In this document: one piece after another, positions 156-1,650 of the stretch
Position numbering within the stretch: the stretch's first letter is position 1
Layout: every line of letters starts with the position of its first letter
Assembly (NCBI RefSeq): GCF_055900595.2
Contig: NZ_CM148325.1
Length of the DNA: 64,000 nt
Reading direction: 5' to 3' (one strand)
Program-made: the position numbers and the translations under genes
Notes under the pieces: model-generated
The model's input: only the letters and a program-made list of their open reading frames with translations
What the model was told of the DNA's origin: nothing
Databases searched by the model: none

Positions 156-821
156 TCATACAAAACCAGCCGCTTTCCGGCGTTCATACTCCTGTTTCAG
201 CAACTCAATTGGCGTTGGTCCCGACGGGCGTTTGGGGGCAGCCAGTTGTCGCCGGACTGGCGGAACGCTGAGGCCCATACCAACATGCTTTGACCATTTC
301 GTCAGTTGCCGTTCTGCAAACCGTTTTAACTCCCCTTCGGTCATCTGGCGTTCAATCCCCTTTGAACGCATCTCGAGGCATATGTGATACAGCACAGGCT
401 GAGACCACGGGTATTTATCGCTTCCGTCGTATCGCCAGGACTCATTGCGCCAGCGTCGGTACTCCTCCATCACAGCCCCCACCGTCAGACCGAATGGATT
501 GGCCCCGCTTTCCGGAATCAGTGCCACAAACTCAGCCAGGTCAGGAGGCCATGTTTCACCCGCCCGGCAGCGGTCCATGCACTGGCGGCAGACCTGCCGG
601 ATTTGCTGCTCAGTCATCGCGCCAATCTGTGCAATCCAGAGCTTCGAAGGTGCGGCCCCGTTCTTCCGGGTCCAGCGGTCCGAATAAACCTCCCCCATGA
701 GTTCCCACAGCTTCCAGGCTGTTTCCGTCGCTGATAAATCCGTTTTCACGTTCCCACTGCTCACGTGCTGCCCGAATTTCCTGAACTGCCCGTGATGCGG
801 TGCCACCTGGTGCTGCTGCAT
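156..821 (-). CDS. Replication protein P-like (DnaB helicase loader family)
   Basis: 221-aa ORF; C-terminal half resembles lambda P (YPW...LY...M motif region); AAGGGGG RBS before ATG at 821; alternative in-frame starts at 698 and 617. Confidence 0.55.
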   Translation of the reverse strand: MQQHQVAPHHGQFRKFGQHVSSGNVKTDLSATETAWKLWELMGEVYSDRWTRKNGAAPSKLWIAQIGAMTEQQIRQVCRQCMDRCRAGETWPPDLAEFVALIPESGANPFGLTVGAVMEEYRRWRNESWRYDGSDKYPWSQPVLYHICLEMRSKGIERQMTEGELKRFAERQLTKWSKHVGMGLSVPPVRRQLAAPKRPSGPTPIELLKQEYERRKAAGFV

Positions 822-1650
822 GGTTCACCCCCTTGCTGACTGGTTTAACCTGCGCCCTGACGTGATTTACGTGACGGGCGAATTTCTGCTCCCACTGAAC
901 CTGTGTGAACACTTTCCCCTCCGCCATCCAGTAATCCCGGAAGGCGGCAAGTTCAGCAGGTGTAAATTCCGGTTCCGGCAAAGCCGCTCCCCACAACGCA
1001 GCCCGCCGTCGAAAATCCAGCGACGGATGCCAGCCATCGGTCATCGGAAATTTTCCGATGGGTTCGCTCAGGCCATCCAGGAATACAGGGGGGGCTGCCT
1101 GTAACGACAAAACTTCCTGCTCACTGATCGGAGCACTCTCGCGTGTGTTATGTGTGGGGTTTAGATCTTTGGGTTCCTTTGGGTTCCGTGATCCGTTTTT
1201 GGGTGTCTTTGATGGAAAATTTGGGTGTTTTTGGTTATTTTCCATGCAGCTAAGAGTTCCGTTTTTGGGTCTGTTTTGTGCTGAAACATAACCATTTTCG
1301 GTACTGTTTTTATTAACAGCACCAATTTTACCCTCCTTTAAAGACTCCCGTTTTTGGGTGTATTCAGGCTCTGCAACGCTTTCTTCTACACCGATAAGTC
1401 GGTACACCACGATTTGCTTTGTTCGGCCTTTTCTCTCACCGGTATCAACAATTAACCCAATCTCCATCAGGTGTCGTAAGCTGTCCTGCACAGTCTTTTT
1501 GTTCAGTTCCGTTACTTCTGCCAGTGCAGATACAGACGGGTATGCACACAAATCGGCACCGCACATATCAGCAAGCCAGGTCAATACTGACTTACTGGAT
1601 GAACTGCCGGTTTTCACCTTTTTAGCCCATCGTAGTGCATCGATGCTCAT
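610..1650 (-). CDS. Replication initiator, O-like: N-terminal HTH, Lys/Asn/Pro-rich linker, C-terminal DnaT-like domain
   Basis: ATG at 1650 with AGGAG RBS; N-terminus MSIDALRWAKKV... HTH-like; C-terminus FTPAELAAFRDYWMAEGK resembles DnaT C-terminal domain; iterons lie inside the linker coding region. Confidence 0.65.
   Translation of the reverse strand: MSIDALRWAKKVKTGSSSSKSVLTWLADMCGADLCAYPSVSALAEVTELNKKTVQDSLRHLMEIGLIVDTGERKGRTKQIVVYRLIGVEESVAEPEYTQKRESLKEGKIGAVNKNSTENGYVSAQNRPKNGTLSCMENNQKHPNFPSKTPKNGSRNPKEPKDLNPTHNTRESAPISEQEVLSLQAAPPVFLDGLSEPIGKFPMTDGWHPSLDFRRRAALWGAALPEPEFTPAELAAFRDYWMAEGKVFTQVQWEQKFARHVNHVRAQVKPVSKGVNHAAAPGGTASRAVQEIRAAREQWERENGFISDGNSLEAVGTHGGGLFGPLDPEERGRTFEALDCTDWRDD
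1160..1365. repeat. Putative phage replication origin iterons (TTTGGGT-core repeats) followed by AT-rich stretch
   Basis: TTTGGGTTCC at 1168-1177 and 1178-1187; CCGTTTTTGGGTGT at 1193-1206 and 1349-1362; CCGTTTTTGGGTCT at 1259-1272; TTTGGGTGTTTTTGG at 1220-1234; AT-rich 1290-1345. Confidence 0.45.

Follow-up and report, generated by a model that had tools for sequence, protein, structure and literature searches.

We analyzed a 64,000-nucleotide (nt) stretch of contig NZ_CM148325.1 (RefSeq assembly GCF_055900595.2), hereafter the window, in which a replication initiator gene is followed on the minus strand by a gene for a helicase loader of the phage lambda P type. The two genes overlap out of frame. 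Based on the start signal, the conservation of the upstream protein sequence and the constancy of the frame relation, both frames of the shared segment (610–821) are very probably genuinely coding, with P starting at ATG 821. A preliminary description of the window had put the overlap between an O-like 3′ end and a P-like 5′ end at about 210 nt, and its outline was borne out: the segment measures 212 nt, the initiator frame stays open to TGA 612–610, and P lies in the +1 frame relative to the initiator, its codons beginning 1 nt downstream of the initiator codons. All positions are window coordinates; the genes and candidate starts are as follows, with lengths of proteins in amino acids (aa).

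610–1650, minus strand: initiator ("O-like") gene, 346 aa from ATG 1650, from the open reading frame (ORF) list and Pfam
156–821, minus strand: helicase-loader ("P-like") gene, full form of 221 aa from ATG 821, stop 158–156
610–821, minus strand: probable dual-coding segment, 212 nt, initiator codons 277–346 plus stop and P codons 1–71
825–834, minus strand: Shine-Dalgarno (SD) sequence of P, AAGGGGGTGA, embedded in initiator codons (…K G V N H…)
696–698, minus strand: alternative in-frame ATG (M42), from which many NCBI records for other genera begin P (177–181 aa)
610–617, minus strand: P start ATG 617 (M69) of RefSeq and the Prokaryotic Genome Annotation Pipeline (PGAP), ATGACTGA, with an 8-nt overlap with the initiator stop

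The start of P is sharply delimited on its upstream side. In the P frame, ATG 821–819 is preceded by a single sense codon (ACC) and, before that, by TGA 827–825; because this in-frame stop lies two codons before ATG 821, no start upstream of 821 is possible. The bases preceding ATG 821, TCAGCAAGGGGGTGAACC, form a duplex with the 3′ end of 16S ribosomal RNA of −14.8 kcal/mol, which places them in the top 0.5% of positions of the locus. In agreement with the preliminary description, which had assigned the best ribosome-binding site (RBS) to ATG 821, the SD sequences of the later in-frame ATGs are weak, at −4.2 kcal/mol for 698 (M42), −1.5 kcal/mol for 617 (M69) and −3.7 kcal/mol for 578 (M82). 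Similarly, the first ATG has the best SD in all 14 of the 14 enterobacterial representatives compared (−7.2 to −14.8 kcal/mol, mostly GGAGG), and the equivalents of M42 and M69 mostly reach −1.5 to −6 kcal/mol (M42 up to −8.7 in one). At the level of the sequence, this conserved SD and ATG argue for an independent start of P within the initiator gene. RNA folding around the P start revealed no structure beyond that of shuffled sequences (z = −0.67), and a hairpin that sequesters the RBS and is opened by translation of the initiator was dropped as a candidate on that value.

The protein sequence that the long form adds to P is conserved and belongs to the folded part of the protein. The full-length product contains the N-terminal stretch MQQHQVAPHHGQFRK…, and it matches Phage_lambda_P (PF06992) with 54.0 bits against a gathering cut-off of 26; the match spans residues 60–188 (window 258–644) and profile positions 32–161. 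By homology to this family, the window P would bind host DnaB and load it. Among 17 locus-derived P sequences, the mean pairwise identity is 56% for residues 35–70, 51% for the Pfam core and 19.5% for residues 2–34, and residues 35–70 carry the conserved motif AWxLWExMGEIYSxRWxxKNGxxPSxLWIAQIG. In an AlphaFold2 (AF2) model of P (35-row alignment), the mean predicted local distance difference test (pLDDT) score is 80.6; residues 1–26 are disordered, and helices 25–46, 48–54 and 60–67 have a pLDDT of about 90. In a Foldseek search of the PDB, the top six matches are all lambda P chains, the best full-length one being 9oa1_Z (E 8.6e-6, 219 columns) with a template modeling (TM) score of 0.47, a value that comes from the comparison of a multidomain flexible protein. 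Lambda P has a disordered N-terminal "lasso" domain I (residues 1–29) and a compact domain II (about 30–119) (PMC12661323). In the model, the P leader fits lambda P domain I, and helices 25–67 fit the start of domain II.

Furthermore, the P gene of phage phiV10 matches window P residues 18–221 by tblastn, although phiV10 P has only a 4-nt junction to its DnaT gene. Since this N-terminal region is encoded outside the initiator gene in phiV10, it is ancestral P sequence. According to the model, the 153-aa product from 617 would be devoid of three helices of the folded domain II and of 31 Pfam model positions. These data agree with the earlier claim that starts at 698 or 617 would remove P-homologous sequence, as residues 35–70 (56% identity, core 51%) are predicted to adopt a fold like lambda P domain II.

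Related loci were taken from a species-representative genome collection, three IMG/VR scans, annotated phages and proteins found only by a hidden Markov model (HMM) of the initiator tail. The first IMG/VR scan returned only E. coli relatives of 95–100% identity, which were used for polymorphism counts and added no depth; a scan with a single Vibrio P protein gave no match, and one with a three-sequence Vibrio alignment gave three loci. Mosaic initiator sequences introduced gaps into a MAFFT nucleotide alignment that began 360 nt before the P start, and positional alignments from 45 nt upstream were used in its place. Among the 188 loci with a P match, both genes are intact in 184, and in 184 of these 184 the initiator frame equals the P frame minus 1, so the comparison with related O/P pairs that had been suggested earlier shows the frame relation to be kept throughout. 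The initiator stop lies 137–362 nt downstream of the first P-frame ATG, with a mode of 212–215 nt and always a length of 3n+2 (184 loci), and indels between lineages come in multiples of three. The intact loci form 24 clusters at 85% P identity, with a lowest identity to the window of 28% (Vibrio phages), and they range over E. coli, Citrobacter, Klebsiella, Pluralibacter, Phytobacter, Pectobacterium, Prodigiosinella, Samsonia and Vibrio phages. In Vibrio phage D75, the overlap is exactly 212 nt. The remaining four loci are decay products: P is interrupted by a nonsense codon (codon 52) in L037, the initiator is truncated in L102, and P is truncated in L023 and L025.

The relation also holds in the reciprocal direction. 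Three initiators found solely with the tail HMM (L194–L196) are each followed by a Phage_lambda_P gene, and in all three the P frame extends back to an ATG that precedes the initiator stop by 191–230 nt and whose SD reaches −10.1 to −11.5 kcal/mol. Other P subfamilies, namely those of lambda, phiV10, mEp237, Klebsiella phage ST13-OXA48phi12.5 and Tyrion, have an ordinary 4-nt junction; therefore, the long overlap is a derived trait of one subfamily.

Three individual loci deserve a separate description. In a metagenome contig from IMG/VR (L190), the only lineage of its kind, the initiator stop lies directly after the conserved helix and before the conserved P block; the overlap is 137 nt, P has 264 aa, and the overlap of this locus may be an intermediate or may have reverted. 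In Leclercia adecarboxylata NCTC13032 (L019, about 2600–2690, outside the 188 loci), a 1-nt frame change at a GGGGG run makes the P frame read into the initiator tail, which reflects either a decayed prophage or a homopolymer assembly error. In addition, the replication module of PP818812.1 ("Actinobacillus phage vB_Apl-pPE4", host label Actinobacillus pleuropneumoniae) is 92–95% identical to those of E. coli prophages, so the host label looks doubtful or the transfer very recent.

In recoding tests, one protein was held fixed, codons were redrawn from local usage, and the openness of the other frame was recorded. With P held fixed, the initiator frame remains open across the overlap in 3.9% of recodings for the window and in 0.6–8.6% for 17 divergent loci. 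For the distal part alone, the corresponding values are 8–30% in most lineages and 54% in L022, with the shortest overlap, and the distal initiator frame is actually open in 23 of the 24 lineages. With the initiator held fixed, the P frame is open in 37% of recodings for the window and in 9–62% across loci. Chance by itself accounts poorly for the arrangement, which recurs in all 184 intact loci.

Substitutions in the E. coli group (60 unique sequences) were counted by parsimony on a neighbor-joining tree, which gave 594 changes, and rates are expressed per mutational opportunity as follows.

Nonsynonymous in both frames (NN): rate 0.023, reference
Nonsynonymous in the initiator, synonymous in P (NS): rate 0.113, NS/NN 4.9, p = 1.6e-7
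Synonymous in the initiator, nonsynonymous in P (SN): rate 0.079, SN/NN 3.5, p = 1.1e-4
Synonymous in P, non-overlapping part: rate 0.414, neutral proxy

In the same group, there are 1.04 changes per site outside the overlap and 0.34–0.44 inside, and no stop-creating change silent in the other frame was seen, with about 7–8 of each kind expected. In a second lineage (Citrobacter/Klebsiella type, 56 unique sequences), NS/NN is 3.4 (p = 5e-8) and SN/NN is 1.7 (p = 0.04). Collectively, the overlap as a whole is under purifying selection in both frames.

The constraint is divided along the segment, with the proximal half (about 821–717) dominated by the initiator frame and the distal half (about 716–610) by the P frame. 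The variability profiles show the same split, and its two structured elements are as follows.

745–792, minus strand: helix of the initiator tail, SRAVQEIRAAREQWER, in the proximal half, more conserved than any other part of the tail; this DNA also forms P codons 10–26
621–749, minus strand: P helices 25–46, 48–54 and 60–67, in the distal half; the same DNA encodes the glycine/acidic end of the initiator (…HGGGLFGPLDPEERGRTFEALDCTDWRDD)

In the proximal half, the mean pairwise identity is 40% for the initiator helix versus 19.5% for P residues 2–34; in the distal half, it is 56% for P residues 35–70 versus 32.5% for the distal initiator tail. A model of the tail, a linker and P built by AF2 from a paired 21-row alignment follows this division: the tail helix has a pLDDT of 82–90 where the P leader is disordered, and the distal initiator tail has a pLDDT below 45. 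The pairing of structured regions with disordered ones is typical of overprinting.

The initiator tail is not restricted to one type of initiator. The tail HMM matched 78 cluster representatives among 1.84 billion proteins, and in nearly all full-length matches the tail lies at the extreme C-terminus. Of 62 tail matches scanned for N-terminal architecture, 24 carry DnaT, nine DUF1376, eight HTH_36 and three DnaD_N; Phage_rep_O, DUF6291 and HNH or T5orf172 insertions also occur, and many have no Pfam domain. The initiator of locus L020 combines a Phage_rep_O domain with the same tail. A word-index protein search with the 75-aa initiator tail yielded nothing beyond ten short E. coli fragments, all of them partial. 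By these sequence comparisons, the tail appears to be a portable C-terminal unit that is invariably paired with a P of this subfamily. Binding between lambda O and lambda P involves the C-terminal part of the former and the N-terminal part of the latter, and P is less toxic when O is co-expressed (PMC6022878). By analogy, the tail may, tentatively, serve as an adaptor that recruits P, and the overlap as a genetic lock. In two of the metagenome loci (L194, 1501–2724, and L195, 1501–2691; proteins P0166 and P0146), extra HNH or T5orf172/MUG113 domains lie between the N-terminal and DnaT domains, which suggests homing-endonuclease-like insertions in the initiator genes.

Several observations weigh against dual coding from ATG 821 or against parts of it. 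In the Vibrio loci, the SD at the first ATG is weak. The openness of the P ORF given the initiator is by itself weak evidence, and the case for P therefore rests on homology and on the start signal. When the changes in the E. coli group are recounted without a tree, the selection signal drops to p values of 0.06 and 0.02. In the distal half of the second lineage, initiator-only changes occur at 0.25 versus a neutral 0.27 (P-only changes at 0.016), and in its proximal half P-only changes are twice as frequent as double-nonsynonymous ones, which initiator-only changes are not; given such frequencies, there is hardly any amino-acid constraint on the two tolerant halves. The initiator motifs D-x-E-E-R-G and D-x-x-D-W largely follow from the P motifs RW..KNG and WIAQIG, which are read from the same bases, so that of the distal tail only the open frame is clearly maintained. 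Likewise, the adaptor role derives from the lambda analogy; in the fused AF2 model, the tail helix is confident, the P leader is disordered, and no contacts could be read. Taken half by half, the distal initiator tail and the P leader show amino-acid constraint that is weak or differs between lineages.

The alternatives differ mainly in where P begins. If P started at ATG 698 (M42), the overlap would shrink to just 89 nt, and codons 1–41 would be an untranslated by-product of the initiator frame. M42 is indeed Met in most homologs and is the start in many NCBI records, Vibrio phage records annotate its equivalent (with overlaps of 68–80 nt), and the leader of residues 2–34 is poorly conserved (19.5%), disordered and, in one lineage, under little amino-acid constraint. 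However, M42 is without a consistent SD (mostly −2.3 to −6.8 kcal/mol, −8.7 in one, versus −7 to −15 at the first ATG), and the residues upstream of it, A35–L41 (A-W-x-L-W-x-x), are conserved and belong to a helix of pLDDT 90 that starts at residue 25. Moreover, Vibrio phage D75 has Leu in place of M42, this Met is shifted in P0080, and an SD and ATG 30–48 codons upstream of M42 are kept in every lineage despite the variable leader, even if the SD is weak in the Vibrio loci. We therefore consider this start unlikely as the only one; it could be used in addition to 821, and even if true it would leave a dual-coding overlap of 89 nt. The start at 617 annotated in RefSeq, coupled to initiator termination through ATGACTGA, would turn the upstream P ORF into a chance open frame in GC-rich initiator sequence. 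PGAP chose it in four of four E. coli genomes inspected, it is also the start in the Rac-SA53 and pPE4 records, a stop/start overlap is a common coupling device, and 37% of initiator-preserving recodings leave the P frame open. Against this, M69 is Leu in many homologs and so cannot be the start of the family, its SD reaches just −1.5 kcal/mol, P-stop mutations silent in the initiator are absent with about eight expected, and in relatives whose two genes meet in a 4-nt junction, the homologous N-terminal region lies outside the initiator gene. The 153-aa product would moreover discard a region (residues 35–70) as conserved as the core. The preliminary description had allowed for homologs that start P at the 617 ATG with an unconserved upstream region, and the opposite was found; a start at 617 is thus very improbable.

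Two further explanations concern the reading of the segment itself. An indel or sequencing error in 610–830, or a decaying prophage, would imply that the intact initiator ends near 821 or that P is in frame with it. The segment does contain GGGGG homopolymer runs, the Leclercia locus described above is frameshifted exactly at such a run, and the locus L037 has its nonsense codon in P; nevertheless, both frames are intact in more than 100 independent assemblies, in the 60 unique E. coli-group sequences and in 24 divergent clusters, with an overlap of always 3n+2. The probability of an artifact is therefore close to nil, and the earlier concern about a sequencing error or frameshift in 600–830 is removed. 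Programmed +1 frameshifting, which would yield an initiator-loader fusion instead of or beside two separate proteins, could draw on the +1 position of P and on the SD-like element inside the initiator gene, as in prfB-type shifting. However, P has its own conserved SD and ATG at canonical spacing, the initiator frame has no stop at the SD, and it is kept for 70 further codons that a shift site at the SD would not need. The loci inspected by eye, without a systematic motif search, revealed no conserved shift motif, and RNA structure near the site is not significant. Such shifting is accordingly highly improbable. Thus, among the three readings offered in the preliminary description, dual coding is sustained by the conserved upstream protein and by the SD and ATG, and the frameshift and the mis-called start are not.

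Under dual coding with P starting at 821, ribosomes that translate the initiator would run on to TGA 612–610 and add the 70-residue C-terminal tail, and other ribosomes would initiate at the strong SD and ATG (834–819) inside the initiator gene and produce the 221-aa lambda-P-type loader. Proximally, the initiator would contribute a conserved amphipathic helix and P a disordered, freely varying leader that is the counterpart of lambda P domain I; distally, P would contribute the first three helices of the compact domain II and the initiator a disordered glycine/acidic end. The overlap may keep adaptor and loader genetically inseparable while phage mosaicism swaps the origin-binding domains. 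A more far-reaching version, which we regard as doubtful, is a reciprocal overprint in which both halves of an initiator-loader interface reside in one piece of DNA and the tail (helix plus acidic end) docks onto the N-terminal part of P. If this were true, each gene would have extended a disordered stretch over the conserved part of the other, and L190 would look like an intermediate. It would also be a genetic lock, in which DnaT, DUF1376, Phage_rep_O, HTH_36 and DUF6291 domains are exchangeable but the adaptor is never separable from the loader. Ribosome traffic on the initiator across the P start might then also set the O:P ratio, with a loader that is toxic when made alone.

The initiator gene has a mechanical start at TTG 1725, and ATG 1650 is the annotated-type start. 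RefSeq names the identical gene of 1041 nt "DnaT-like ssDNA-binding domain-containing protein". From the N-terminus, it comprises HTH_36, a low-complexity linker with iteron-like repeats, the DnaT domain and the 70-aa C-terminal tail inside the overlap. Its domains lie as follows.

About 1450–1545, minus strand: HTH_36 winged helix in the initiator (Pfam, weak match)
About 850–1050, minus strand: DnaT DNA-binding domain in the initiator (Pfam, 63 bits)

A Pfam scan of the window initiator gave no match to Phage_rep_O (PF04492), and the earlier label "O-like" is therefore appropriate as a functional analogy and not as a family assignment. In the linker region, four direct CCGTTTTTGGGT-like repeats with the unit (T)CCGTTTTTGGGT occur at 1186–1366 with irregular spacing (33–66 nt), and a 13-nt inverted repeat lies near them. 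These repeats are a candidate iteron array or a putative origin within the initiator gene, as in lambda.

Both genes come after Cro-like and YdaT-like genes in a lambdoid prophage adjoining ompW. The operon has a second same-strand overlap, also present in the RefSeq annotation, in which the initiator ATG 1650 sits 29 nt inside the 3′ end of a YdaT-family gene (1622–2173; overlap 1622–1650). Prophage and core positions were inferred through strain GF4 (99.9% identical), in a comparison that covered the window to about 18.9 kb. On this basis, the first ~9 kb of the window would belong to a PPompW-type lambdoid prophage inserted next to ompW and form its early-left/immunity end (Rha, Kil, exonuclease, xis, int), and the sequence beyond the prophage, to ~18.9 kb, would be part of the E. 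coli core chromosome, with yciC, tonB, kch, cls and opp. The replication module was matched in 1343 of 5426 complete E. coli genomes, and in 906 of these the match covered 80% or more of the query.

The arrangement resembles the lambda O-P pair in that an initiator gene is directly followed by a Phage_lambda_P-family loader in the early right operon, and the window P is a relative of lambda P by sequence profile and predicted fold. In contrast, the lambda genes overlap by 4 nt (ATGA) versus 212 nt out of frame in the window, where the initiator combines HTH_36 and DnaT. As in lambda Rz/Rz1 and in phiX174 A/B/K and D/E, a single DNA stretch specifies two proteins through different frames of the same strand. 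Unlike those cases, the overlap is partial and runs tail to head between adjacent replication genes rather than being embedded, each gene is the constrained one of the pair in one half, and the products are expected to work together. The E. coli K-12 Rac genes ydaU-ydaV share the module order (ydaS/ydaT-like genes, initiator, loader) and a DnaT-domain initiator; K-12 YdaV, however, is presumably DnaC-like and not lambda-P-like. Overprinted and overlapping genes are the subject of two reviews (PMC8227390 and PMC6195259). No description of the present overlap was found in the literature searched, and the main text of a paper on out-of-frame remodeled E. coli gene families makes no mention of the two genes.

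In databases, the long P ORF is present but inconsistently annotated. The RefSeq/PGAP "replication protein P" of 153 aa (e.g., WP_077788969.1) and the "ydaU/ydaV" of Rac-SA53 have the same locus and frame, but P is taken from M69, 68 codons after the conserved SD and ATG. GF4 is among the four E. coli genomes annotated in this way. Other NCBI entries, including older GenBank records and the output of other gene callers, have P forms of 221–223 aa; further entries have forms of 177–181 aa from M42, and LC567818 starts at M82. Similarly, the metagenome gene caller cuts P to 123–152 aa in L194–L196, and the P of D75 (L106) is annotated with 108 aa; these late calls leave "intergenic" gaps of 40–120 nt that are coding in the P frame. 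Gene callers suppress long same-strand overlaps, which are usually deemed errors, and here this suppression would become a systematic error. P would be annotated at least 68 residues too short in the four RefSeq genomes inspected and in three metagenome assemblies, with part of the folded domain lost.

Out-of-frame overlapping phage genes are already known, and the present case is a new, well-supported example. It is unusual in its conservation from Enterobacterales to Vibrio, in the partition of constraint between the frames, in the pairing of partner proteins that should contact each other, and in the systematic truncation of P. Among double-stranded DNA phages, it would be a clean case of dual coding with deep conservation, and the overlap allows single-base changes that alter one frame but leave the other protein unchanged. 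Moreover, the tail and P may represent a mechanism, open to experimental testing, by which initiators of non-lambda type (DnaT-domain, DUF1376 and others) recruit a loader of the lambda P type.

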